DNA of 64,000 nt from an uncultured Acidobacteriota bacterium (lineage in GTDB: Bacteria > Acidobacteriota > Vicinamibacteria > Vicinamibacterales > CAVPJW01), in NCBI GenBank assembly GCA_963705525.1, contig CAVPJW010000003.1, positions 339,976-403,975 on the forward strand. Reading direction: 5' to 3'. Position numbers and translations under genes: made by a program. Below the pieces are notes generated by a model. The model made no database searches and had not been told where the DNA came from. It worked only from the letters and a program-made list of their open reading frames with translations. How positions within the stretch are numbered: the first letter of the stretch is position 1; every line of letters starts with the position of its first letter. Shown here one piece after another: positions 454-55,183 of this stretch.

Positions 454-1716
454 TCACGATGCCGCGGCCGCCGCTGACACTGAGTCTGGGGCGCTGGCGA
501 GGATCGCCTCGAAGTCGCGCAGCGATTTTCCGATCGTGACGGGCTGCACCACCTGGCCCTGGACGACTTCAGTGGTCTTGTACCCGTTGCCGGTGATGCA
601 GACGACGATCGATTCGTCGCGCGGAATGACGCCGCGCTCGATGAGGTCGACCGCCGCCGCCAATGTCGTGCCTCCCGCCGGCTCCGTGAAGATGCCCTCG
701 GTCTCTGCGAGGAGCTGAATGGCGCCGATGATCGCCTCGTCAGGAACCATGGCGCCCCATCCGCCGCTCGCGCGCACGGTTTCAAGCACCTGGAATCCGT
801 CGGCGGGATTGCCAATCGCGATGGACTTGGCGATGGTTGCGGGCTTTACCGGCTCTGGCACCTCGAGCTGCTGAACGAGGGCACGCACGACAGGAGCGCA
901 TCCCGCTGCCTGCGCGGCATGGATACGCGGCAGCTCGCCATCGACGAGGCCCACTTCCCTGAGCTCGCGGAACGCACGGCCGATTCGGGGCAGGAGCGTG
1001 CCTCCCGCCACGGGCGACACGACGTGCTGGGGGAATCGCCAGCCGAGCTGTTCGGCGATTTCGAATCCCATCGTCTTTGCGCCCTCTGCGTAGTAGGTGC
1101 GGAGATTGATGTTGGCAAATCCCCAGCCGTACCGATCGGCGATCTCCGTGCACAGCCGGTTCACATCGTCGTAGTTCCCGCGAACGGCCACGAGGCGGGG
1201 ACGAAAGATCGCCGAGCCGAGGACCTTGCCGAGCTCGAGATCGTGGGGGATGAAGACGTAGCACTCGAGACCAAGCCGCGCGGCGTGAGCCGCAACGCTG
1301 CCCGCCAGGTTGCCCGTGGATGCACAGCTGAACACCGGGAACCCGAGCTCAACCGCGCGCGTCGCCGCAACCGACACCACCCGATCCTTGTAGGACAATG
1401 TCGGGTGGTTGACCGAATCATCTTTGATGTAGAGCTCGCGAACGCCAATGCGCTCGGCGAGTCTCGTTGCTCGAACGAGCGGCGTAAATCCCGACGACAG
1501 CCCTGTCCGTGGCTTGCCTTCGATCGGAAGAAGCTCCTGGTACCGCCAGAGATTTTTCGGGCGGCTCTCAATCAGATCGCGCGTCATCACGTCGGAGACC
1601 GCCGCATAGTCGTAGGTGACTTCGAGCGGGCCCAGGCATCGATCGCAAACCCACAACGCCTTCGCAGGAAAAGCTGTGTGGCACAAGTGGCAGCGGAGGC
1701 CAGTTACATGACTCAT
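454..1716 (-). CDS. thrC: threonine synthase
   Basis: N-terminal Cys-rich ribbon (RCHLCHTAFPAKALWVCDRC) and a PLP-enzyme core (LSYKDRVVSVAATRAVELG, ASTGNLAGSVAAHAARLG). I prefer the ATG at 1716 (MSHVTG...), which is preceded by GAAGAGGA, over the track start at 1746, which overlaps hom by 20 nt. Confidence 0.9.
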   Translation of the reverse strand: MSHVTGLRCHLCHTAFPAKALWVCDRCLGPLEVTYDYAAVSDVMTRDLIESRPKNLWRYQELLPIEGKPRTGLSSGFTPLVRATRLAERIGVRELYIKDDSVNHPTLSYKDRVVSVAATRAVELGFPVFSCASTGNLAGSVAAHAARLGLECYVFIPHDLELGKVLGSAIFRPRLVAVRGNYDDVNRLCTEIADRYGWGFANINLRTYYAEGAKTMGFEIAEQLGWRFPQHVVSPVAGGTLLPRIGRAFRELREVGLVDGELPRIHAAQAAGCAPVVRALVQQLEVPEPVKPATIAKSIAIGNPADGFQVLETVRASGGWGAMVPDEAIIGAIQLLAETEGIFTEPAGGTTLAAAVDLIERGVIPRDESIVVCITGNGYKTTEVVQGQVVQPVTIGKSLRDFEAILASAPDSVSAAAAAS

Positions 1717-1726
1717 CGCATCCTCT

Positions 1727-2986
1727 TCACGCGCGACTGCCGACAAACGGCAGGCAAACGGGGCGTTCCGTTAGCTCGAGCCCCTTCCAGAGCGCATCAG
1801 CGAGCCGATCGACCGCCGCAAGCGGACAAGGCGCCAGCATCACGACCGCCGAACCCTCGGACTCAGGGCCCGGTTTCTGAAGCACCCGGTCGATCGCGAC
1901 CGCGGAACTCGAAAGAATAGCCCGAAATCCGGGCTCGGAGTCCAGTTCCTCTGAGGTCCTGAGTCGCAGATACCAGGGGCCCGTGAAGGCGCCCTCGACC
2001 CGGGAAAACTCCATCGGCAGTGGCGCGAGCCTCGAGCCGTTGCCGGTATGCCGCAGAACGGCAAGGAGATCCGAGACTACCGCCGACGCGGTCGCCTCCC
2101 CTCCCGCCCCGGGCCCGGTCAGCGAAATCTCCCCCGTCAGTTCACTGTTTATGACGACGACGTTCTGCCCGTCGCGCGTCGCGGCAAATGGCGACGCTTC
2201 AGGGACGAGGGCCGGCGAGACCCAGGCCAGAACGGACTCGCCCTGTCGCTCGACCCACGACACCTGTCGGACGGCGCACGTCAGCCGAGTCGCCCAGGCG
2301 AGATCCACAGCCTTGATGGGTGCGATCGAGCGCGCAGGAATCTCTGCCGGACTGAGCCGCCGTCCGAGTCCGACGCTGGCCAGAATCGCCAGCTTCGCTC
2401 GCGCGTCAATTCCAGACAGGTCGTCGGCCGGATCCGACTCCGCGAACCCGCGAGCCTGCGCTTCGCGGAGCGCGTCTTCGAACGTCAGGTTCCCGTCGCT
2501 CATGCGCGTGAGGATGAAGTTGCACGTCCCGTTCAAAATGCCGGCGATCCGGTGAATGCGATCGCCCGCAAGACCTTCTCTGATGCTGCGAATGACCGGA
2601 ATGCCGCCGGCAACCGCGGCTTCGAACGCCAGCTCGACGCCGTGCCGCCTCGCGAGATCCTCGAGCTCCGCGCCCGAGTCGGCCACGAGCTGCTTGTTGG
2701 CCGTGACGACCGACTTCCCCGTCGTCAACGCTTTCCGGATCCACTCCCCGGCAGGCGTCAACCCACCGACGACCTCGACGACGATGTCGACATCGGAGGA
2801 GAGCACATCCTCGAACCGCTCGGTCCACGTGACGTGGGGCGGAACCCAGTCAACCTTCTTCCGTCCGACATCGCGGTTGAAGATGACGGCGAGCTCCAGG
2901 TCGCGCGCTCGGCCGGTGGTCAACGACTTCGCGACAGATCGGCCCACGGTGCCAAATCCGGCGATCGCAACCCTGGCCTTTCTCAT
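1727..2986 (-). CDS. hom: homoserine dehydrogenase
   Basis: MRKARVAIAGFGTVGRSV Rossmann N-terminus, SVVTANKQLVA, and the GIPVIRSIREGLAGDRIHRIAGILNGTCNFIL signature, with an ACT-like C-terminus. 4-nt ATGA overlap with lysC. Confidence 0.9.
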   Translation of the reverse strand: MRKARVAIAGFGTVGRSVAKSLTTGRARDLELAVIFNRDVGRKKVDWVPPHVTWTERFEDVLSSDVDIVVEVVGGLTPAGEWIRKALTTGKSVVTANKQLVADSGAELEDLARRHGVELAFEAAVAGGIPVIRSIREGLAGDRIHRIAGILNGTCNFILTRMSDGNLTFEDALREAQARGFAESDPADDLSGIDARAKLAILASVGLGRRLSPAEIPARSIAPIKAVDLAWATRLTCAVRQVSWVERQGESVLAWVSPALVPEASPFAATRDGQNVVVINSELTGEISLTGPGAGGEATASAVVSDLLAVLRHTGNGSRLAPLPMEFSRVEGAFTGPWYLRLRTSEELDSEPGFRAILSSSAVAIDRVLQKPGPESEGSAVVMLAPCPLAAVDRLADALWKGLELTERPVCLPFVGSRA

Positions 2987-4404
2987 ACGCCGTGCCCGTA
3001 CCCGCGGGGCGCCACCACGGCATCCTCACCGAAGAATCGATCGTGCAGCCGTGTGATGACGGCGGGCATCTCGTTCTGATGAACGAGCAACGCGATCGAT
3101 TGTCCTGGCGGCGGCTGACTGATCAGGTGCACCGGCACTCCTCGGAGCGCAGCCAGCACGTCGGCGAAGACTGCCGGATCCGGTCGAGCGCCTCCACTGA
3201 CAGCACAGACGAGCGCCATGTCCGATTGCCAGGTCACATCCGCTACGGCGGAGAGTCCGTCGAGGATCTCCGCCAGGCGGCGGACATCCTCGATGGCAAC
3301 CGACACGTGGAGGTCGGACGCCGCCATCGTCGTGACAGGTGTCGCGTGACGCTCAAATTCGTCGACAACTCGCCTGAGAAACTGCTGCGATCTGAGGGTT
3401 CCGCAGCACGTGATGTCGAGTACCGTCAGTGACCGCTTGCCGGCGAGGGCGATGACGCGCGTGGCGTCCGCACGGGACGATGCCGTGATCAGCGTGCCAC
3501 GACTGCCAGGCTGCCGCGAATTGAGCACGCGGACCGGAATGTTGTGCTCGACGGCCGGTTCGATCGTCGCCGGATGCAGCACCTTGGCGCCGAACCTCGC
3601 GAGCTCGTAAGCTTCCCTGAACGACAGCAGGGCCACCGGGCGCGGTCGTGCGACGACGCGCGGATCGGCGGTCAACACCCCGTCCACGTCGGTCCAGATC
3701 TGTATTTCGCGTGCGTCGAGACAGGCGCCGAGAATCGCGGCCGAGTAGTCCGAGCCTCCACGGCCGAGTGTGGTCGTCGCTCCAGAAACACTAGCACCCA
3801 CGAAACCACCGACGACGGGAACGTATCCATGTTCGAGGTACGGGCTGAGTTCAAGACCGACGCGCGCCCGCGTCTCCGCCATCAGCGGTCTGGCGTGCGA
3901 AAACTCATCATCGGTGACCAGGACGCGGCGCGCATCCACCCACACACCGCGGAGTCCCGCATCTTCGAGTGCGGCGGCGACGATCTGACTGCTCAAAAGT
4001 TCTCCGGCCGCGGCCACGCGATCCGAGAGCCTCACCGACAGTTCGCCCACGGTCACGATCGTGCCGAGGTCGTCGTCGAGATCATTGAGGGTCCTGCGCA
4101 GCCGTCGGATCAACGCGGACCGTCGAACCGGGTCGGCCACGGCCGCCGCCGCTCCGTGATGACGGTGCTCGATGTCGGTGAGCTCGCGACCTGCGGCGCC
4201 GCCTAAGCCGGTCGCCGCGAGCTCCGCCATGGCGAGCAGCCGATCCGTGATTCCGGCAAGCGCCGACACCACGACGACGCGAGGTGCTGAACGCCGCGCG
4301 GTGATGTTGATCAGGCGGCGAATCGCTTCCGCGTCGGCAACCGACGTGCCGCCAAACTTCATCACCAGCGGTTGCGCCCGATCAGTCAAGCCATCCCTCC
4401 GCAT
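2983..4404 (-). CDS. lysC: aspartate kinase (the start is uncertain: ATG 4404, TTG 4389 behind GGAGG, or ATG 4362 giving MKFGG)
   Basis: VMKFGGTSVADAEAI, GRGGSDYSAAILGA, and a C-terminal ACT region. It lies between asd and hom. Confidence 0.9.
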   Translation of the reverse strand: MRRDGLTDRAQPLVMKFGGTSVADAEAIRRLINITARRSAPRVVVVSALAGITDRLLAMAELAATGLGGAAGRELTDIEHRHHGAAAAVADPVRRSALIRRLRRTLNDLDDDLGTIVTVGELSVRLSDRVAAAGELLSSQIVAAALEDAGLRGVWVDARRVLVTDDEFSHARPLMAETRARVGLELSPYLEHGYVPVVGGFVGASVSGATTTLGRGGSDYSAAILGACLDAREIQIWTDVDGVLTADPRVVARPRPVALLSFREAYELARFGAKVLHPATIEPAVEHNIPVRVLNSRQPGSRGTLITASSRADATRVIALAGKRSLTVLDITCCGTLRSQQFLRRVVDEFERHATPVTTMAASDLHVSVAIEDVRRLAEILDGLSAVADVTWQSDMALVCAVSGGARPDPAVFADVLAALRGVPVHLISQPPPGQSIALLVHQNEMPAVITRLHDRFFGEDAVVAPRGYGHGV

Positions 4405-5437
4405 ACATCAGCTCCGCGTTGAGCAGGGCGGCGCCAGCCGCTCCGCGAACCGTGTTGTGGCCAAGGACCACGAACTTCACGTCGAGCACCGGGCAGGATC
4501 GCAGTCTGCCGACGTGAACAACCATGCCACCATCCCGTTCCGCATCGAGTCGCGGCTGCGGCCTGTCCGACTCGTCGCGGTACACGATGGGTCGCGACGG
4601 CGCGCTCGGCAGTTTCAGCTGCTGGGGAAGACCGGAGAACTCGACGAATGCTCTACGCACGTCATCGATGGGCACCCTTCGATCGAACCCCACGGCGACG
4701 AGCTCGGTGTGGCCGTCGACAACCGGAACTCTCGTCGTCTGGGCGCTGATGGTGACGGCGTCTGGCTCCACGCTGTCGTCCAATAGGCGTCCAAGAATCT
4801 TCTGTGGCTCGGACTCGAGCTTCTGTTCCTCTCCGTCTATGGCAGGGATGACGTTGCCGATGATGTCGAGCGATGCGACGCCCGGATACCCGGCCCCCGA
4901 CGCTGCCTGCAGCGTGGTCACGCTGACGACCCGCGGTTGAAACGGGCGGAGAGCCGCGAGCGCCATCGTGAGAAAGACAGTGGAGCAGTTCGGGTTGGTC
5001 ACGATTGCGCCGCGCCACCCTGACTCGCGGCGTTGCGCCGAGAGCAGTCCCAGGTGATCGGGATTGACCTCCGGAATGAGCAATGGCACGCGCGCGTCCA
5101 TCCGGTGGTTGCGCGCATTGCTGACGACGATGTGGCCCGCCCGCGCGAAGGCTTCTTCCACCGGCCCCGCCACGGATGAATCAAGGGCCGAGAACAGCAG
5201 CCGTGGCGCGACGCCGGGCTCGGGCCTCTCGACGGCGAGATTGCGCACGCCCTCGGGCATCACACGGGGCAACCGCCATGGCAGCTCCTCGTACAAACGC
5301 CCTTCCGATCGCTGACTCGCCCCCAGCCACGCAACGCGGAAAAACGGATGCCCGTCCAGGCGGGACACGAGCTGCTGGCCCACGGCGCCGGTGGCGCCGA
5401 GGACGCCGACGTCTATCGGTAAGGGTTCAGATGACAT
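4382..5437 (-). CDS. asd: aspartate-semialdehyde dehydrogenase
   Basis: VGVLGATGAVGQQLV, active-site TNPNCSTV, and HTELVAV. GGAGAA Shine-Dalgarno at 5446..5441. Confidence 0.9.
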   Translation of the reverse strand: MSSEPLPIDVGVLGATGAVGQQLVSRLDGHPFFRVAWLGASQRSEGRLYEELPWRLPRVMPEGVRNLAVERPEPGVAPRLLFSALDSSVAGPVEEAFARAGHIVVSNARNHRMDARVPLLIPEVNPDHLGLLSAQRRESGWRGAIVTNPNCSTVFLTMALAALRPFQPRVVSVTTLQAASGAGYPGVASLDIIGNVIPAIDGEEQKLESEPQKILGRLLDDSVEPDAVTISAQTTRVPVVDGHTELVAVGFDRRVPIDDVRRAFVEFSGLPQQLKLPSAPSRPIVYRDESDRPQPRLDAERDGGMVVHVGRLRSCPVLDVKFVVLGHNTVRGAAGAALLNAELMYAEGWLD

Positions 5438-5451
5438 CAGTTCTCCAGAGC

Positions 5452-5485
5452 AAAAAAAAACCCGCCGACCGTTGGGTCGGCGGGT
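5452..5485 (-). terminator. intrinsic terminator / candidate attenuator hairpin immediately upstream of asd
   Basis: Minus strand: ACCCGCCGACC-CAAC-GGTCGGCGGGT, an 11-bp perfect stem, followed by a run of 9 T. The run ends 14 nt before the asd ATG. Confidence 0.75.
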
Positions 5486-5533
5486 CCTGGTTGCTCGTTC
5501 TTGTCTGTCTGGCTTCTGGCTTTTCCGAACTAT

Positions 5534-5629
5534 TTACGCGTCGAGCACGCGGACACCACCGACCGGGCAAATTCGCATAATGCGAATTCGCATGACCATG
5601 GCGGTGAGGGTGGTGGTCGTGCGCGTCAC
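5534..5629 (-). promoter_or_regulatory. candidate leader-peptide ORF (31 codons, Thr/Ile/Met-rich)
   Basis: GTG 5629 to TAA 5534 encodes VTRTTTTLTAMVMRIRIMRICPVGGVRVLDA. The same frame is also open from ATG 5686 (50 codons). No clear Shine-Dalgarno. The predicted transcription start of the adjacent promoter falls next to the GTG. Confidence 0.35.
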
Positions 5630-5637
5630 TAGAGGCA

Positions 5638-5667
5638 AGTATAGGTGCCCGCCCAAGGTCCGGTCAA
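5638..5667 (-). promoter_or_regulatory. sigma70-like promoter, TTGACC-N18-TATACT
   Basis: Minus strand: TTGACC at 5667..5662 and TATACT at 5643..5638, with an 18-nt spacer. It lies between the amidohydrolase stop and the terminator. Confidence 0.45.
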
Positions 5668-5705
5668 CCCCGGGTCTTGTAAACATTTGTCATTCCGCAA
5701 AGGGC

Positions 5706-7415
5706 TCAATGGCTGGCGTTCGGGCTGGATCGATCGAACATGACCTTTCCTCCCACGACCGTCATCATCACCCTGGCCTGCCTGATGTTCTCAGGAGCCA
5801 TCTGACGCAGGTCCTGATCGATGACGACGAAGTCGGGAAGACGGCCCACGGTGAGCGCGCCCTTTCGCTGCTCCTCGAACGATGCGTACGCGGCCGTTCC
5901 GGTGTAGGCCTCGAGTGCCTGTTCGACGGAGATCTTCTGTTCGGGCACCCAACCCTGCGGCGTCTTGTCGTCGATCGTGCGCCGCGTGACGGCGGCGTAG
6001 ATGCCTTCGAGGGGCATCGGCGGCGCGACGAACCAGTCGCTGCCAAACGACACGCGCGCATTCGCGTCAAGCAGCGATTTGAAAGCGTAGGTTGTCTTGA
6101 TGCGTACCGGCCCAATCACTTTCTCGGCCCATCGTCCGTCATCGATGGCGTGGTACGGCTGCATGCTGGCGATGACACCGAGGTCGTGGAATCGGGGAAT
6201 GTCGCCGGGCAGCAGATGCTGAGCGTGCTCGATGCGGAACCGACGATCTCGCGCACCGTCTTCCTGTTCGACCCGCTGGTAGATGTCGAGCAACGTCCTG
6301 TTGGCCCGGTCGCCAATCGCGTGCACCACGACGTGAAGTCCGGCCTTGTCGGCGCCGGAAATCCATGCGTAGAGATTCTCCGGTGTATTCACAAAGAAGC
6401 CGCGATCCTTCGGCGCGTCGGTGAACGGCTCTTCGAACGCCGCCGTGTGTGATCCGAGCGAACCGTCCACAAATCCCTTGAGCGCACCGATGCGCAGCCA
6501 CTCGTCGCCACGCCCATCGGGTCCGTACTCCTTCGACTGGACGACGTCACGAAGACGCTCCCACGTCGCGAGCGGGACCGCGGCGTAGATGCGCGTCCGG
6601 AGTCGTCCCGCCTTGCGCGCGCGCGTGAATGTGGCGAGATCGTCCCAGGTTCCCATGTGATGAACTGACGTCACGCCCTGCTCTGCCACGTAGCGCATGG
6701 CAGCATCGAGCGCGCGGTCGCTCATCTCCGCCGAAGGCGGCGGCACGACCTTGTCCACCATCCCCATGGCGTTGTCTTTCAGAATCCCCGTGGGTTCGCC
6801 GCTCGCGCCCCGGACAATCGTCCCGCCTGATACGTCCTTCGTCGTCTTATCTACGCCGGCCGCCTCGAGCGCGGCGCTGTTGGCCAGAGCCATGTGGCCG
6901 TCGAGGCGATTCACCCAGACCGGATTCTGCTTCGTCGCCTCGTCTATCCATTCACGTCGAGGCAGCTCGCCGCCCCAAAGCTGATGGTCCCAGTCACCTC
7001 CGGTGATCCAGGTGCCGGAAGGTACAGTCGCCGCGAAGTCCTTGATCCGCCTGGAGAATTCTTCGGGCGTCTTCGCGTCGCGCAGCTGAACGGACGCCAG
7101 ACGGAATCCGCCGTCGGTGAAGTGCACATGGGTATCGATAAATCCGGGCACGAGCATCCGCCCGTGCGCATCGACGATCGTTGCGCCGGCCGACATCCGT
7201 CGAATCTTGTCGCTCGTGCCGACTCCGACGATTTCGGCATCGTTCACCGCAATCGCCTCGGCCGAGGGATGGGTGCTGTCTCCCGTCCAAACCCGTGCAT
7301 TGACGACCGCGAGCGTGACGCGCGCGGAGGAAACCGGAGCCTGTGCTGGCGGCGTCGCACAGCCATTCAGGAGACAAACAAAAACAACGCCGAGCGAGAG
7401 TCGCGTCATGACCAT
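5706..7415 (-). CDS. amidohydrolase family protein (YtcJ-like, amidohydrolase_3), secreted and possibly a lipoprotein
   Basis: VPGFIDTHVHF metal-binding motif, HAIGDRANR, RIEHAQHL and FGSDW. N-terminal signal MVMTRLSLGVVFVCLLNGC. Confidence 0.85.
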   Translation of the reverse strand: MVMTRLSLGVVFVCLLNGCATPPAQAPVSSARVTLAVVNARVWTGDSTHPSAEAIAVNDAEIVGVGTSDKIRRMSAGATIVDAHGRMLVPGFIDTHVHFTDGGFRLASVQLRDAKTPEEFSRRIKDFAATVPSGTWITGGDWDHQLWGGELPRREWIDEATKQNPVWVNRLDGHMALANSAALEAAGVDKTTKDVSGGTIVRGASGEPTGILKDNAMGMVDKVVPPPSAEMSDRALDAAMRYVAEQGVTSVHHMGTWDDLATFTRARKAGRLRTRIYAAVPLATWERLRDVVQSKEYGPDGRGDEWLRIGALKGFVDGSLGSHTAAFEEPFTDAPKDRGFFVNTPENLYAWISGADKAGLHVVVHAIGDRANRTLLDIYQRVEQEDGARDRRFRIEHAQHLLPGDIPRFHDLGVIASMQPYHAIDDGRWAEKVIGPVRIKTTYAFKSLLDANARVSFGSDWFVAPPMPLEGIYAAVTRRTIDDKTPQGWVPEQKISVEQALEAYTGTAAYASFEEQRKGALTVGRLPDFVVIDQDLRQMAPENIRQARVMMTVVGGKVMFDRSSPNASH

Positions 7416-7974: not shown

Positions 7975-8053
7975 GGAATTCAGGTCCGCCCTTTCAATGC
8001 CCGCGTTGGCCGCGCGCGCGGAACAAATCTCGCAGGCCCGTGTCAATAACCAC

Positions 8054-9559
8054 ATGGGCCGACCTCTCTGGGTTGCCGCGCATCTATTGGCCTGGCTCTC
8101 GCTTTCGAGCCAGGCCCTCATCTCACAGTCGGCCTCCGATCCCGACCGCGAACTTCGTGCCAGCTTAACCAGGATGCTCGATGACAATTGGCATCCGATG
8201 TTGACGGATCCGGAGTGGCTGGCACTACGCAGCCGTCTAGACTCGGAGCTCCAGTTCCGTCCAAACGGACCGCTGGCGATGCTGGCGAGAAGAGCCGCGG
8301 TTCGGATCGAATTCGCGCCGAATTCTCTGGTTTCACAGGAGCCCGGAACAGGATTCGATCTCGACACGCGCCCGTGGTTTCAACTGAAGATGCCGCTTCG
8401 GTATCTGGTCGAGATCGACGCGTCGGAGGACGGCGACACGTGGCTTCCGATCGCGGCCGCGTTCGATTCGTCACGCTGCGGCGCTTCGGTCGGAAGTAAA
8501 GACGGTCGGCTCGATTTTCGGCCCGGCATGCACCGTCTGCAGCTGCGAGCGCGCGTTGCCCTCCTCCGGTCGACGCCAGGTCCCGAGCATCCCGACAACG
8601 AATGCGTGTTCGCTGGAGGGCCGCCAACCGCGTCAAACACGTGGCCGCGCGCTCAGGGTCAACAGATCCTCGGGGAATATCAACAATCACTCGCCGGCAT
8701 CTCATTCATGACAATCGCCTCAGGTGATCCGGATCCGCTCGCCAGACGCGCAGCCACGACGAGCGCTCATGCCATCGACCCGAGTCTGCCGCCAGTGCCT
8801 CTGGAGCGGTGGTTGAATCTTCAGCTCTCAGGTCATCCGGCCTGGAAGGGTCCATCTTTCTGGATGATCGGCTACTGCAATGTCGAGGAGGCGGAATGGT
8901 ATCCGGGAGACTCAATCGATCAGACGTTCTGGCCGGCAGCCTCCGCGGCGCGACGACAGTACCGTTCCATATGTGCGACTGCGCTCAACGGATTCGACGA
9001 TCGCGTCATCGGAATCCGGCTGAAGGTTGCACGAGTGCGCGAGGATACAGGGGAGTGGCAGTTCGAGCCCGCCTCGTTTCATGAAGGGTTCGTTGAGGAC
9101 AATGTGGACGGCATCGACCTCAAGGCCCTGAGCGACCTTCCCACCGCCCTGCAGTTACCTCGGCGGGATTGGCCAATCACCGATCTTCGAGTGACTCCGA
9201 TAGACGTTTCGCTGACGCCGACAGTACCAAAGCCGGGTGATGAGGTCCAGGTCAAGGTGCTCATCCGCAATGTCGGGTCGAGGGACGTGCGATGGGCGCA
9301 CGGTTTCGTGCTGGTCGAGCCGTGTTGCGCACGTCAAAGCGTGGCGCGGGACTTTCTCGGCCCCATTCCTGCCGGAGAGACGCTGACCGTCGAACAATCC
9401 GTTGTTCTGCCTTCCGGAACGGGTTGGGTCACTGCTATGGTCTGGCCATGGCTACCGAACATGGCCACCGGATCCGGGTTCCGGCCATCGATGGGCGACT
9501 CGTTCGTCGAGGATGACTTCGTGGTCCTCGAAATCGGCGAGCCAATCCTTCCCCTGTGA
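8054..9559 (+). CDS. hypothetical secreted protein with a CARDB-like C-terminal domain
   Basis: Signal-like MGRPLWVAAHLLAWLSLSSQA. The C-terminus (TPTVPKPGDEVQVKVLIRNVGSRDV...GETLTVEQSVVLP) resembles CARDB-type beta-sandwich repeats. The rest carries no motif I recognise. Confidence 0.55.
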   Translation: MGRPLWVAAHLLAWLSLSSQALISQSASDPDRELRASLTRMLDDNWHPMLTDPEWLALRSRLDSELQFRPNGPLAMLARRAAVRIEFAPNSLVSQEPGTGFDLDTRPWFQLKMPLRYLVEIDASEDGDTWLPIAAAFDSSRCGASVGSKDGRLDFRPGMHRLQLRARVALLRSTPGPEHPDNECVFAGGPPTASNTWPRAQGQQILGEYQQSLAGISFMTIASGDPDPLARRAATTSAHAIDPSLPPVPLERWLNLQLSGHPAWKGPSFWMIGYCNVEEAEWYPGDSIDQTFWPAASAARRQYRSICATALNGFDDRVIGIRLKVARVREDTGEWQFEPASFHEGFVEDNVDGIDLKALSDLPTALQLPRRDWPITDLRVTPIDVSLTPTVPKPGDEVQVKVLIRNVGSRDVRWAHGFVLVEPCCARQSVARDFLGPIPAGETLTVEQSVVLPSGTGWVTAMVWPWLPNMATGSGFRPSMGDSFVEDDFVVLEIGEPILPL

Positions 9560-23778: not shown

Positions 23779-24540
23779 CTACATGACGCCCAGGATGGCG
23801 AAGATCCTGGTCGGTCCCCCGCTCCCGCCCATGACGTTGATGGGCGCCACGATGACCGTGAACCCGGTGGCGGGGAGAGCGGTCAGATTGGCCGCATTTT
23901 CAATGTGGTACACGTTGAGCGGCATCGTCACATGATGGGTCTCGAACGCGGCCGAGGCGCCGTAGTCGACGCTCGCCGTATCGATGCCGATCGCCGCCAC
24001 CTTTCGATCCTTCGCGAGGTAGGTCGCCGCCTCCACGGAAATTCCGGGAAAATGCTTCACGCCGTTCCTGACATTCATATAGCGCGACGGCGTGGACCAG
24101 AAACGGTCCCAGCCCGTTGCCACCAGAACCGCCGCACCCTCGGGTATAGCACCCGCCTTTGATTCGAATGCACGCACATCGTCGAGCGTGAGCCGGTAGT
24201 CGTCATCGACCCCGGCTCTTCCGGCGACGTTGATGCACACGCCGGGACGCATCAGCCGCTCGACCGGTATGCGATCCGTCGTCCACTCACCGCCGAAATG
24301 CGCCGGCGCGTCCAGGTGCGTCCCGAAATGCTCTTCAGTCGTGAACTTGCCGGTGGCGTAGCCGTCCTTGGCGACCGTCGAGGTCACTGTGCGGTTGAAC
24401 ACGGGCGTGCCGTCCCAGCTCGGATCGGTCGCAGAGAGCGGATGACCGAGGTCGATCATCTTCGGCTGCGACTGCGCCTCAAGGGCCGCGGCCAGCACGA
24501 TCGCGAACGCCGACGTGAAGAGGGTTCTCATGACGCGCAT
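23779..24540 (-). CDS. cyclase family protein (kynurenine/arylformamidase-like), secreted
   Basis: EEHFGTHLDAPAHF motif and GIDTASVD. Signal MRVMRTLFTSAFAIVLAAALEAQ. The longer track ORF 23779..24903 fuses this gene to the upstream pseudogene frame. Confidence 0.8.
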   Translation of the reverse strand: MRVMRTLFTSAFAIVLAAALEAQSQPKMIDLGHPLSATDPSWDGTPVFNRTVTSTVAKDGYATGKFTTEEHFGTHLDAPAHFGGEWTTDRIPVERLMRPGVCINVAGRAGVDDDYRLTLDDVRAFESKAGAIPEGAAVLVATGWDRFWSTPSRYMNVRNGVKHFPGISVEAATYLAKDRKVAAIGIDTASVDYGASAAFETHHVTMPLNVYHIENAANLTALPATGFTVIVAPINVMGGSGGPTRIFAILGVM

Positions 24541-24541
24541 T

Positions 24542-24903
24542 CTACAGTCCGAGTTGCGCCTTGAGCCACTCCTGGCGATCCCGGCGAGCGTCCTGGTTGA
24601 GCCCGTGTCCGGCGTCGTACCAGCGCAGACTTGGGCTCGCTGGCGGCGGGGATGAACTCCTCGGCCTTCTCCTTCGGCACGTATGGATCGCCGCCCTCCC
24701 GAGGTGTTCACAAACGTCACGTTCCGGATCGTGGCGCCGCCGCGCGTCTCGCTGCCAACATCCCGGACGTCGAATGGGGCCGTGGCGTCGTAGCTGAACG
24801 TCGTCGCAGGCAGCTTGGGGAGGGCCCAGACACTCGCAGCGAGGGTGCCAGCCCCGACCGCGAACCCAAGTCCGCCGAGGACAAGAACCCGACCTTTCGT
24901 CAT
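24542..24903 (-). pseudogene. decayed remnant of an alpha/beta-hydrolase (dienelactone-hydrolase-like) gene
   Basis: Three frames carry fragments. The N-terminus is MTKGRVLVLGGLGFAVGAGTLAAS...ATIRNVTFVNTSGG. The middle is GDPYVPKEKAEEFIPAASEPKS. The C-terminus is LRWYDAGHGLNQDARRDRQEWLKAQLGL*. The nucleophile-containing core is absent. Confidence 0.5.
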
Positions 24904-39765: not shown

Positions 39766-39817
39766 CCGGAAAAAACGAAGGCCGAGGCACGACGCCTCGG
39801 CCTTTTTCGTTTTCCGG
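39766..39817. terminator. bidirectional intrinsic terminator between convergent genes
   Basis: The GGCCGAGGC-ACGAC-GCCTCGGCC stem is flanked by an A-run (5') and a T-run (3'), with extended CCGG...CCGG pairing. Confidence 0.65.
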
Positions 39818-53047: not shown

Positions 53048-55183
53048 TTACGAGGCCGGACTTCGCGGAGGACTTGGGCTCGAACGGCCGGCGTGCCTGG
53101 GCGTCATCGCGGCGCCCACGATGTCGATGCGGTCGATGACATCGCCTTCGAGAACAGTATCCACGACCTCCATGCCGCGGGAGACCTCGGCGAATACCGT
53201 GTAGATGTGATCGAGACGCGGGTTGTCCACGAGATTGACGAAGATCTGCGCGTCGCCCGTATCGCGTCCCCGGGTGGAGATGCCCAGTGTGCCACGACGG
53301 TGAGACCGGCGGGCAACTTCGTCTCTCAGGTAGTCGCCGTCTCCCATGTACTCGTTGGCGCCGGGACTTCCGCCCTGGATGACGAAGTTCGGCACCACAC
53401 GGTGGAATGTGAGGCCATTGTAGTAGCCCGCCCGCGCCAGGCTGACGAACCTGGACACCGTGATTGGCGCTTCTGCTGCCAACAGGGTCAGCTCGAACGT
53501 GCCCCTGCCGCGCATGGAGACGACGGCGGTCGCCGCCGTGTTGTTTTTGAACTCAAGAAGGGGTGTTTCGATCGACCTGGAAAGCGGTGCTGCGGAAACC
53601 GGATTCTTCGCCCACCCAGTCAGAATCGTCGCGGCAAGGTTCGCGACCTCGGGATCGAAATCCCGGAGGTACGGCTGGAGGTCCGCAGCCTGACCGGCGT
53701 CGCCGAGCTCCTGAACGCGCTTCAGGATCGCCACTCTGGGATCCCGGCTCGTGTCGCGATGCTCTCTCGTCACCCGTTCGAGGTTCGCCAGCAGCGCAGA
53801 GATTGCCTGCGCCTTTCGCGGCGAACCTTCGAGTGCCGTCGCCGCTGTCAGCACCGTCTGATAATCGCGACGAGCCAGTGCCGCGATGAAGTGTTCGTCG
53901 GCATCGTGTGCCTGCAGTTTCTGGAGTGCTTCGAGCGCCGACTGGCACACGTTATCGTTCCGGTCGGAGGCAAGCAGACGAAGCCGATCGGCGTCCTTGA
54001 GAGCGAGCGCAGCCTGCGCGGCATACATCCGGACCTGCCAAATCGGGCTGGCGGCGAACCGGTCCATGAGCGGACGTGCCGATTCCGGAAACTGTTTCGC
54101 AAGGGATACAAATGCATGTGCCGAGCGCTGCCATTCATCGTTTCTTGCCAATCGCTCGAGCACGTGCTGCGCCGCTGGTCGATCGGCGCACGATTGACCG
54201 AGAAGATCGAGCGCGAGCAGCACGACATGCGGATTCGCGTCCGAGCTTGCCGACACAATCGGCTGGCAGCCGGTCGCCTGAAGGCGTTTCCCATATGTCC
54301 TGAGCGCCTCGAGCCTGACCATGGGCGAGGAGTCTAGCAGGCCGCGATCGACAAGTGGAGCGCGGTCATCGACTGCGTCGAGACGTCCAAGGGCCGCCGC
54401 GGCAATCTGTCTGACCTGCACGTCCGGATCGCGGGTAGTGGAGTCGAGCGTGCCGCGATCGATGGCCCGCGCGTTGACCAGGGCACCGAGCGCCAGTCGT
54501 CTCACGACAGCCGCTTCAGAACTTGGTTCGTCCGGGCGCTCGACCGCCGCGCGAAGTGCGGCTGCCGTGCCGTCTGCTATCGGGCCGATCTTCTCGACAC
54601 GTCGTGTCAGCGATTCAAGACCTCGAGCAGCGCCCAGACGGAATTCGTCACCATCAGTCGGATTGAGGAGCGCCGACCTCAGTCTGTCCTCGGCCCGGAC
54701 TCGCCCACCGTCCTCCGGCGACGCGTAGCGCAGCCGCCCCAGTGACTCGAGCACGACGCGCGCGACGCTCGGATTGGCTTCGGCGTCGAGTCGTGCAATC
54801 AGCCGCTCCGCAGCGTTGGCGATGTCCCCCGGACCCGCGTTTTCCTGGGAAACGGCCTGTGCGAGCGCATCGGCTGCTTCGGCACGCACCGCCGGGGCCG
54901 CGGCCGCGAGCGCGCCGGCAATGGTCACGGCCACGGCGGGGCGCTCGAGCCTGCCCAGCGCCCTGATCGCGGCCACCTGCACGTCCACGGACGGGTCGTC
55001 GAGACTCGACTGGAGAAGCTCGAGATCGGACGGCCGCGAGGCGCGCCTGTCTTCGGCGGCAATTACCGCCTGAAGGACGGCGCTCGATCGCGGCGGCGCC
55101 GGCGCTCGTGTCTGTGGCGCAGGCGATGGAAGGTTCGCCGCCGTCAGGGCGAGTGACGCCGCGCCAACGAGGCGAAGGATCAC
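53048..55183 (-). CDS. HEAT-repeat protein fused to a C-terminal cyclophilin-type peptidyl-prolyl isomerase, secreted
   Basis: N-terminal HEAT-like repeats (DPSVDVQVAAIRALGRL, SPMVRLEALR) cover about 500 aa. The C-terminus reads FHRVVPNFVIQGGSPG...GTLGISTRGRDTGDAQIFV. GTG start in a GTGA overlap with the M49 gene. Confidence 0.85.
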   Translation of the reverse strand: MILRLVGAASLALTAANLPSPAPQTRAPAPPRSSAVLQAVIAAEDRRASRPSDLELLQSSLDDPSVDVQVAAIRALGRLERPAVAVTIAGALAAAAPAVRAEAADALAQAVSQENAGPGDIANAAERLIARLDAEANPSVARVVLESLGRLRYASPEDGGRVRAEDRLRSALLNPTDGDEFRLGAARGLESLTRRVEKIGPIADGTAAALRAAVERPDEPSSEAAVVRRLALGALVNARAIDRGTLDSTTRDPDVQVRQIAAAALGRLDAVDDRAPLVDRGLLDSSPMVRLEALRTYGKRLQATGCQPIVSASSDANPHVVLLALDLLGQSCADRPAAQHVLERLARNDEWQRSAHAFVSLAKQFPESARPLMDRFAASPIWQVRMYAAQAALALKDADRLRLLASDRNDNVCQSALEALQKLQAHDADEHFIAALARRDYQTVLTAATALEGSPRKAQAISALLANLERVTREHRDTSRDPRVAILKRVQELGDAGQAADLQPYLRDFDPEVANLAATILTGWAKNPVSAAPLSRSIETPLLEFKNNTAATAVVSMRGRGTFELTLLAAEAPITVSRFVSLARAGYYNGLTFHRVVPNFVIQGGSPGANEYMGDGDYLRDEVARRSHRRGTLGISTRGRDTGDAQIFVNLVDNPRLDHIYTVFAEVSRGMEVVDTVLEGDVIDRIDIVGAAMTPRHAGRSSPSPPRSPAS

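Follow-up and report, generated by a model that had tools for sequence, protein, structure and literature searches.

A probable leader-peptide attenuator ahead of the asd-aspartokinase-hom-thrC operon of an uncultured Acidobacteriota bacterium

To our knowledge, leader-peptide attenuation has been documented almost only in the Proteobacteria, the Actinobacteria and a few Firmicutes. The trp leader of Escherichia coli (trpL) follows a kinetic model in which two Trp codons stand beside an Arg codon, the terminator exceeds the antiterminator in stability and the 1:2 hairpin doubles as a pause signal. The lysine and methionine pathways elsewhere use riboswitches (L-box and S-box). Here we examine a candidate attenuator of the asd-aspartokinase-hom-thrC operon in a 64,000-nucleotide stretch of DNA (hereafter the window) from an uncultured Acidobacteriota bacterium of the Vicinamibacterales (contig CAVPJW010000003.1, positions 339,976 to 403,975). 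A lysine riboswitch has been described upstream of asd-lysC in Candidatus Solibacter and other Bryobacterales of the same phylum (PMC5584792). In the Actinobacteria, a comparative study (Seliverstov et al. 2005, PMC1262725) predicted leader-peptide attenuators for trp, cys, leu and some aminoacyl-tRNA synthetase genes and found no RNA element for an operon of Thr, Lys or Met, and the leaderless poly-Cys short open reading frames (ORFs) of mycobacteria have been described as amino-acid-responsive attenuators (bioRxiv 10.1101/834739, Canestrari et al.; PMC4633059, Shell et al. 2015).

Ahead of asd, the minus strand of the window combines the features of a classical attenuator, namely a short ORF with end-product codons, an intrinsic terminator before asd and, in silico, mutually exclusive 1:2, 2:3 and 3:4 pairings (Table 1). 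Judged from its sequence, this region is probably a ribosome-mediated (leader-peptide) transcription attenuator of the operon. A preliminary description of this DNA had proposed as much, and the reading is supported by operon-matched codons, a codon motif held in frame, the positions at which a stall would be effective and cognate pairings. Promoter, leader ORF, terminator and Shine-Dalgarno sequence all lie on the minus strand where that description had placed them. The promoter (TTGACC-18 nt-TATACT) agrees with the consensus at 10 of 12 positions, and the first 12 kb of the minus strand hold no second sigma-70-like match of that quality. The GTG start codon lies 8 nt past the -10 hexamer without a Shine-Dalgarno sequence, and the leader mRNA is predicted to be leaderless or nearly so. 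Within the 31 codons, 6 Thr occupy codons 2-9 and are followed by 3 Met and 3 Ile. The extension of this frame from ATG 5686, noted earlier, would begin upstream of the conserved promoter and finds no comparative support. The terminator stem is perfect over 11-14 bp (14 pairs when G-U and A-U extensions are counted), and its U-tract ends 5 nt from the Shine-Dalgarno sequence and 14 nt from the asd ATG. About four strong intrinsic terminators occur in the 64-kb window, and the asd one alone lies about 15 nt ahead of a long ORF.

Table 1. Coordinates of the leader elements and of the operon in the window.
Feature	Position	Strand	Remarks
-35 hexamer TTGACC	5662..5667	-	TTGAC at equal distance in nearly all homologous leaders
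-10 hexamer TATACT	5638..5643	-	same hexamer in 22/29 tabulated leaders, also in later-added ones
Leader ORF	5534..5629	-	GTG 5629 to TAA 5536-5534; 31 codons; peptide VTRTTTTLTAMVMRIRIMRICPVGGVRVLDA
Segment 1, Thr-codon stretch, codons 3-10 CGC ACG ACC ACC ACC CUC ACC G	5602..5622	-	pairs with segment 2
Candidate regulatory-codon core AUG CGA AUU CGC AUU AUG CGA AUU (M R I R I M R I)	5570..5593	-	kept in L161, L164, L162
Apical hairpin GCGAAUUCGCA-UUA-UGCGAAUUUGC	5567..5591	-	within the 1:2 stem
Segment 2, antiterminator strand CGGUCGGUGGUGUCCG	5550..5565	-	resembles the terminator 3' arm
Terminator ACCCGCCGACC-CAAC-GGTCGGCGGGT + T9	5452..5485	-	
Segment 3, terminator 5' arm GGACCCGCCGACC	5475..5487	-	
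Segment 4, terminator 3' arm GGUCGGCGGGU + U9	5452..5470	-	
asd Shine-Dalgarno GGAGAA and ATG	5437..5446	-	GGAGAA 5446-5441; ATG 5437-5435
Operon	454..5437	-	asd 4382-5437, aspartokinase 2983-4404, hom 1727-2986, thrC 454-1746 (NCBIfam and ORF coordinates)

Our scans for Asd proteins in Acidobacteriota genomes and metagenomes yielded 160 loci, with identity of at most 69%, and in 31 of these an iterated nucleotide profile placed a homologous leader immediately before asd. A further 5 leader loci came from lookups of the nearest Asd proteins (L167 among them being sequence-identical to L166), and the 36 other loci obtained in all have the leader in that position without exception. Three are syntenic orthologues (L161, L162 and L164), which share the order amidohydrolase-leader-asd-aspartokinase-hom-thrC and have Asd proteins 69-71% identical, and the remaining 33 are more distant. 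No closer relative, above 71% Asd identity, was found by the genome scan, the metagenome scan or a search of 5.8 billion proteins. The preliminary description had reasoned that orthologous regions without the ORF, the codons and the pairings would speak against an attenuator; such a loss was seen neither in the three orthologues nor in the other 33 loci. The complete leaders share the TTGAC and TATACT promoter elements and a G-rich box, GGYCGGUGGUG or a variant of it, and each of the 34 complete homologous leaders has an ORF of matching geometry (22-34 codons). Across the family the start codon follows the -10 hexamer after 6-15 nt (mode 7-10 nt), a spacing that leaves no room for a Shine-Dalgarno sequence and would imply a 5' untranslated region of 0 to ~8 nt. 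The leader stop codon falls 24-65 nt ahead of the terminator arm, and the terminator itself, of the form ACCCGCCG...CGGCGGG-U(n), is conserved in all members. Short tandem repeats were also observed beside leaders, as GGCATTCCATTC-like units upstream (L002:4580-4760), as CCCGTGCTTTGAAC units upstream of the leader in L047:4700-4800 and as CGGCATTCGGCATTCGAC after the terminator in L036:170-200.

The codon content of the leaders varies with the operon that they precede. All 27 leaders of asd-(aspartokinase)-dapB-dapA-dapD-dapE operons contain Lys codons, with an R-K-R motif and often many Thr codons, in contrast to none of the 7 leaders of asd-aspartokinase-hom operons. Among the latter, 3 leaders of asd-aspartokinase-hom operons, one of which (L040) is seen to continue into metX, are Met-rich (AMRMMAMRM), and the 4 leaders of asd-aspartokinase-hom-thrC operons (the window and its 3 orthologues) encode an Arg-flanked Ile/Met core with 3-6 Thr upstream. 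The thrC-type peptides begin VTRTTTTLTAMVMRIRIMRICPVGGV... in the window, MLALGTLTGATMRIRIMRICRVGGV... in L161, MLALGTLTGAMMRIRTMRIRRVGGV... in L164 and MASRLISTGTMTGTRIMRIRGVGGV... in L162. As read from these sequences, the distribution supports the view that a leader encodes Lys, Met or Ile-Thr according to whether its operon contains dap, metX or thrC genes. In an ungapped alignment the leader classes prove homologous codon for codon: M-R-I-R-I-M-R-I of the window aligns with K-R-T-G-T-T-R-I of L001, and the core position reads CGA-AAG (Lys) in dap-type and CGA-AUG in metX-type leaders, while in the window core the rare Arg codon CGA stands immediately 5' of an Ile codon. The run of Thr codons that had at first been taken for the sensing stretch is thus present in the window but is not the conserved core, since the orthologues have 3-4 scattered Thr codons; what is conserved is the CGA-flanked Ile/Met block, and the uninterrupted Thr run is window-specific. 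The most Thr-rich leaders (L001, L083, L082, L087, L084, L163 and L005), most with 7-9 Thr and 1-3 Lys, precede asd-dapB-dapA-dapD(-dapE) operons without aspartokinase, hom or thrC. This combination suggests either multivalent control of asd by Thr and Lys or Thr codons ACC that are partly structural.

The same comparison bears on whether the ORF product could be a functional basic micro-protein, rich in R-K-R or R-I-R, that acts in trans. The conserved R-x-R pattern would suit such a role, one Met-type peptide (the only leader peptide of the family in the protein collection) is annotated by JGI as a 'hypothetical protein', and trans functions are known for some leader peptides, e.g. peTrpL (PMC7298713). 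However, beyond the short codon motif the peptides are conserved neither in sequence nor in length, their C-terminal part shifts frame relative to the conserved RNA box, and the core residues switch among the chemically unrelated Lys, Ile and Met in step with the operon, so that a micro-protein seems hardly credible to us.

We found further, indirect support for translation of the leader in the conserved spacing of -10 hexamer and start codon and in the choice of reading frame. Compared with neighbouring genes, the ORF frame is enriched in Thr (14.4% vs 5.4%), Lys (6.1% vs 2.2%) and Met (3.7% vs 1.7%), and no such enrichment appears in the other two frames of the leaders. Arg is high in all three frames and therefore reflects base composition. 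The motif CGA-AAG/AUN occurs 44 times, at ten distances from the start codon that range from 18 to 60 nt, and shares the frame of that codon in 43 of these cases, whereas the reading phase of the G-rich box varies (18, 6 and 1 across the three phases); the motif thus behaves as codons and the box as RNA. The ACC-ACC pair has a dual role, as Thr codons and as an RNA strand pairing with GGUGGU, and the Thr codons ACG and ACU are enriched besides ACC. An open frame in itself was discarded as evidence of coding, because frame +2 is stop-free in 28 of 29 leaders. That frame is rich in Asp, His and Ala and has no conserved start codon in the 29 leaders, and we treat its openness as a by-product of base composition.

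Open frames being so common, one may ask whether the mini-ORF arose by chance in GC-rich DNA and the hairpin simply terminates the amidohydrolase gene, with asd expressed by read-through or from another promoter. The amidohydrolase gene, whose stop codon is at 5706, indeed has no other terminator before 5485. Yet the leader is separated from the upstream gene by a conserved promoter, and the element is also found behind divergent upstream genes (L007, L163 and L166) or unrelated ones, so that it is not merely the terminator of the upstream gene. The correlation between codons and operons and the conservation of frame would likewise be unexpected by chance, and we hold this explanation to be most improbable. 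The terminator may also halt read-through from the amidohydrolase gene, which would be compatible with the attenuator model.

The leaders are also unusual in their rare codons. CGA makes up 39% of leader Arg codons versus 5.5% in the adjacent asd genes, ACU makes up 17% of leader Thr codons versus 2.7% in those genes, and across the leader family CGA stands immediately 5' of a Lys, Met or Ile codon 34 times. Possible readings of the CGA excess are a codon context that sensitizes the ribosome to stalling, a constraint of the apical hairpin (the GCGAAUUCGC palindrome) or a protein-binding site; the codon-context sensitizer is the least supported of the three and the most interesting. A protein-binding site would fit an untranslated attenuator switched by an RNA-binding protein or small ligand, in which the repeated CGAAAG/CGAAUU is the site that stabilizes or melts the 1:2 hairpin. 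Such a switch could draw on the conservation of ACU-CGA-AAG at the nucleotide level, rare codons included, on the doubling of the CGAAAG/CGAAUU motif about 15 nt apart in several leader classes, and on the conserved apical hairpin. It would need, however, three paralogous binders whose sites differ exactly at the in-frame Lys, Met or Ile triplet that matches dap, metX or thrC, and it would leave the retention of the start-codon frame over ten distances to be explained. Further, the variable sequence, at ~60 nt, is shorter and less conserved than any known amino-acid aptamer would require, and it gave no Rfam match. We consider this alternative unlikely.

Folding of the 195-nt leader gave a long 5' hairpin followed by the terminator, at -80.5 kcal/mol against -58.7 +/- 4.7 kcal/mol for shuffled sequences (z=-4.6; 0 of 200 shuffles equally stable). 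The pairing of the Thr-codon stretch that had been read by eye, CACCACC (5615-5609) with GGTGGTG (5560-5554), is present in this minimum-free-energy fold. The apical hairpin within the 1:2 stem is possibly a pause hairpin for RNA polymerase. The proposed pairing of box and terminator arm also stood, although not at the 9 bp first given for it: segment 2 (5565-5550) and the arm (5487-5475) can form a duplex of 13 bp, interrupted by one bulge, whose -26.1 kcal/mol equals the strength of the terminator hairpin (-25.7 kcal/mol), and none of 300 shuffles did as well (z=-4.8).

We modelled ribosome stalls through explicit state energies and through the probability of capture of the 5' arm at a time when the 3' arm has yet to be transcribed. 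Prior to synthesis of the 3' arm the antiterminator state is favoured. For the complete RNA the terminator state leads by 14.3 kcal/mol with no ribosome, by about 4-8 kcal/mol with a ribosome stalled on codons 5-18, by 17.3 kcal/mol with a ribosome at Ile20 and by 22.3 kcal/mol with one at the stop codon. When the ribosome footprint was masked, stalls at codons 2 to ~18 left the box able to capture the terminator arm, and stalls beyond about codon 18 abolished the antiterminator. Across the leader family, 43% of the permissive codons specify Thr, Lys, Met or Ile, versus 12% of the non-permissive ones (odds ratio 5.7), which supports, in this model, a clustering of candidate regulatory codons where a stall would keep the antiterminator strand free. 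The equilibrium probability of the full terminator as a function of stall position was set aside as a measure; the terminator wins almost everywhere, and the quantity is uninformative for a kinetic switch.

Across the family, cognate partners show covariation in both the 1:2 and the 2:3 pairing. The duplex of box and arm was better than that of shuffled boxes (p<0.05) in 17 of 29 leaders. Cognate partners paired more stably than non-cognate ones both in the 2:3 pairing (-21.5 vs -18.2 kcal/mol; permutation p<5e-5) and in the 1:2 pairing (-35.1 vs -29.8 kcal/mol; permutation p<5e-5). In a structure-agnostic alignment of 29 leaders, 77% of the antiterminator cells were paired versus 30-54% in slid controls, with 3 of 9 pairs compensatory; among the 4 thrC-type orthologues the figure was 88.5%, and the slid controls over both sets gave 24-54%. 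RNAalifold recovered the terminator alone from the whole 29-sequence alignment (8 consensus pairs, 3 compensatory) because the 5' part aligns poorly, and sub-alignments were therefore used. The terminator cells were 95.3% paired among the 4 thrC-type orthologues. For the apical hairpin, RNAalifold on window-type and L001-type leaders gave 9 pairs, 3 of them compensatory, and 8-10 of 10 related leaders retain the ACCACC/GGUGGU pairing within the 1:2 helix.

These pairings also bear on a model in which the mini-ORF works through translation-dependent polarity, by Rho-dependent termination or by coupling or re-initiation, and the intrinsic terminator is minor or constitutive. Mycobacterial leaderless short ORFs that respond to the cognate amino acid are documented (bioRxiv 10.1101/834739), and equilibrium folding alone gives no switch, both of which would favour polarity. 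However, neither the GC-rich hairpin with U9 that every member keeps nor a box that resembles the terminator 3' arm and shows cognate-specific complementarity is needed for Rho polarity, and the leader stop lies ~100 nt from the asd start, too far for re-initiation. Polarity as the main mode of action seems very unlikely to us.

Under the leader-peptide attenuator reading, transcription would start at or within ~2 nt of GTG 5629, as the conserved -10 spacing suggests, and a ribosome would translate the 31-codon leader from the 5' end of the mRNA. Under a shortage of charged Thr-, Ile- or Met-tRNA, the ribosome would stall in codons 2-18 and cover segment 1, leaving segment 2 free to capture the emerging terminator 5' arm; with the arm captured no terminator would form, and RNA polymerase would read into asd. 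When these tRNAs are plentiful, the ribosome would pass through segment 2 to the TAA, segment 2 would be covered or re-sequestered by segment 1, and the hairpin of 11-14 bp with U9 would form and stop transcription ~15 nt ahead of the asd ATG. We infer the coupling of ribosome and polymerase, the translation of the leader and the response to amino acids from sequence features.

Several points weigh against this reading, besides the openness of frame +2. At equilibrium the full-length RNA favours the terminator at nearly every stall position, and even with no ribosome present segment 2 is predicted to take hold of the 5' arm ahead of 3' arm synthesis; the model therefore works kinetically only, and for absence of translation to lead to termination the 1:2 helix must form first. 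Initiation at GTG may be inefficient on an mRNA that is leaderless or has a leader of 1-2 nt, and the gap between -10 hexamer and start codon is 12-15 nt in 5 of the 29 tabulated leaders. Part of the Thr enrichment may be structural, given that ACCACC pairs with GGUGGU, and the conserved rare codons ACU and CGA could be an RNA-level or protein-binding motif. Finally, no covariation was found among the four thrC-type orthologues, whose helices are conserved and almost invariant, and the leader sequences are phylogenetically related, so that the p-values of the pairing comparisons overstate independence.

Searches for described RNA families returned none that resembles the leader. The preliminary description had pointed to the Thr leader and other amino-acid leaders of Rfam, but a cmscan (E<=10) over positions 5000-6200 yielded nothing beyond terminator-like noise, its best hit scoring 18.8 bits where the gathering threshold is 50, and matched no leader family, and 14 homologous leader loci gave 0 gathering-level matches. 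The lysine riboswitch RF00168 was absent both from this region of the window and from the 14 leader-bearing loci. The same model detected an L-box in 14 of 14 Bryobacterales-type asd loci without a leader (L008, L011, L012, L017, L019, L020, L025, L028, L030, L032, L038, L041, L042 and L046), and the riboswitch search was therefore sensitive enough. In these loci the riboswitch lies ~1.07 kb upstream of asd, with space for about one gene between (e.g. L012:3738-3930). Since either a riboswitch or a leader is found ahead of asd, this position appears to be a regulatory slot for the end products of the aspartate family.

We tentatively hypothesize, with more doubt than for the window element, that these leaders form a modular and hitherto undescribed attenuator family of the Acidobacteriota. 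In such a family the sensing codon of a homologous leaderless ORF would have been swapped along with the rewiring of the downstream operon, with AAG (Lys) ahead of dap, AUG (Met) ahead of hom-metX and AUU/AUC (Ile) together with ACN (Thr) ahead of hom-thrC. Its Lys- and Met-codon attenuators might be the first of their kind, and the CGA 5' of the sensing codon in all classes might be a sensitizer, slowing the decoding of the codon that follows it so that one to three cognate codons suffice. In the literature we found no description of the leader family and no published Lys-codon or Met-codon leader-peptide attenuators. If true, the family would extend leader-peptide attenuation to a major soil phylum and would bring lysine and methionine within the range of leader-peptide sensing. 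It would also offer, with one scaffold, different codons and different operons, a natural experiment in the re-targeting of a sensor, and it would illustrate the exchange of riboswitch and leader peptide at the same genes within a phylum. The interest lies mainly in the swapping of Lys, Met and Ile-Thr codons across the family and in the CGA context, less in the Thr run of the window; the pattern of CGA before the sensing codon is a testable idea on how codon context tunes ribosome stalling. On the practical side, the leader mini-ORFs are unannotated, and a terminator just ahead of asd would mislead operon and promoter prediction.

NCBIfam confirms the names asd, hom and thrC that the preliminary description gave to the operon genes; its 'lysC' can be kept only as aspartokinase, the best match being the model 'lysine-sensitive aspartokinase 3' at 393.8 bits, below the cut-off of 455. 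A Thr-sensitive aspartokinase is equally plausible in a thrC-type operon. Overlaps of 23 nt between asd and the aspartokinase gene (4382-4404), 4 nt between the latter and hom (2983-2986) and 20 nt between hom and thrC (1727-1746), all on the minus strand, suggest translational coupling, and thrB is absent from the operon. Upstream of the amidohydrolase gene, a divergent RidA-family gene (Ribonuc_L-PSP) was observed in L161, L162, L164 and the contig carrying P0002; in the window, the two ORFs at the equivalent position gave no Pfam match. A 520-aa ORF near the amidohydrolase gene (7997-9559, plus strand) matched neither NCBIfam nor Pfam. Elsewhere in the window, a strong bidirectional intrinsic terminator spans 39768-39810 on both strands (GGCCGAGGC-loop-GCCTCGGCC, with T-runs on either side). 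Two candidates for a second leader-like element were rejected: a weak profile match at 24508-24563 is an ordinary gene junction, and a hairpin at 53521-53548 lies inside a 711-aa ORF.

Among known systems, the lysine riboswitch (L-box, RF00168) resembles the proposed attenuator of the window in its use of transcription attenuation, in its phylum and in its asd/aspartokinase slot. However, it is a metabolite-binding aptamer of ~180-200 nt without an ORF, to which the leader family shows no similarity. The thr attenuator of E. coli (thrL; Thr_leader, RF00506) likewise places a short ORF rich in Thr and Ile and an intrinsic terminator before aspartokinase, homoserine dehydrogenase and threonine genes, and the logic of 1:2, 2:3 and 3:4 pairings and the multivalent sensing of Thr and Ile would be common to both. 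Although similar in plan, the two belong to different phyla and share no homology of sequence or structure (no Rfam match at E<=10). The window leader, unlike thrL, has no Shine-Dalgarno sequence, starts 8 nt past the -10 hexamer and runs its ORF through segment 2; it also has Met codons and rare CGA Arg codons flanking the putative sensing codons, and its operon begins with asd and lacks thrB. The mycobacterial poly-Cys ORFs, leaderless first cistrons of biosynthetic operons, resemble the window leader, predicted to be leaderless or nearly so, in their enrichment in end-product codons. They belong to another phylum and concern other amino acids, and our literature search gave no sign that they use a conserved pair of intrinsic terminator and antiterminator, which is the most conserved part here. 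The attenuators of the Actinobacteria (PMC1262725), like our leader family, occur outside the Proteobacteria and were found by comparative genomics. Finally, trpL differs from the leaders described here in being led by a Shine-Dalgarno sequence, in the amino acid concerned and in a stop codon placed before segment 2, and its few regulatory codons are comparable to the two Lys codons of the R-K-R-x-K-R leaders.

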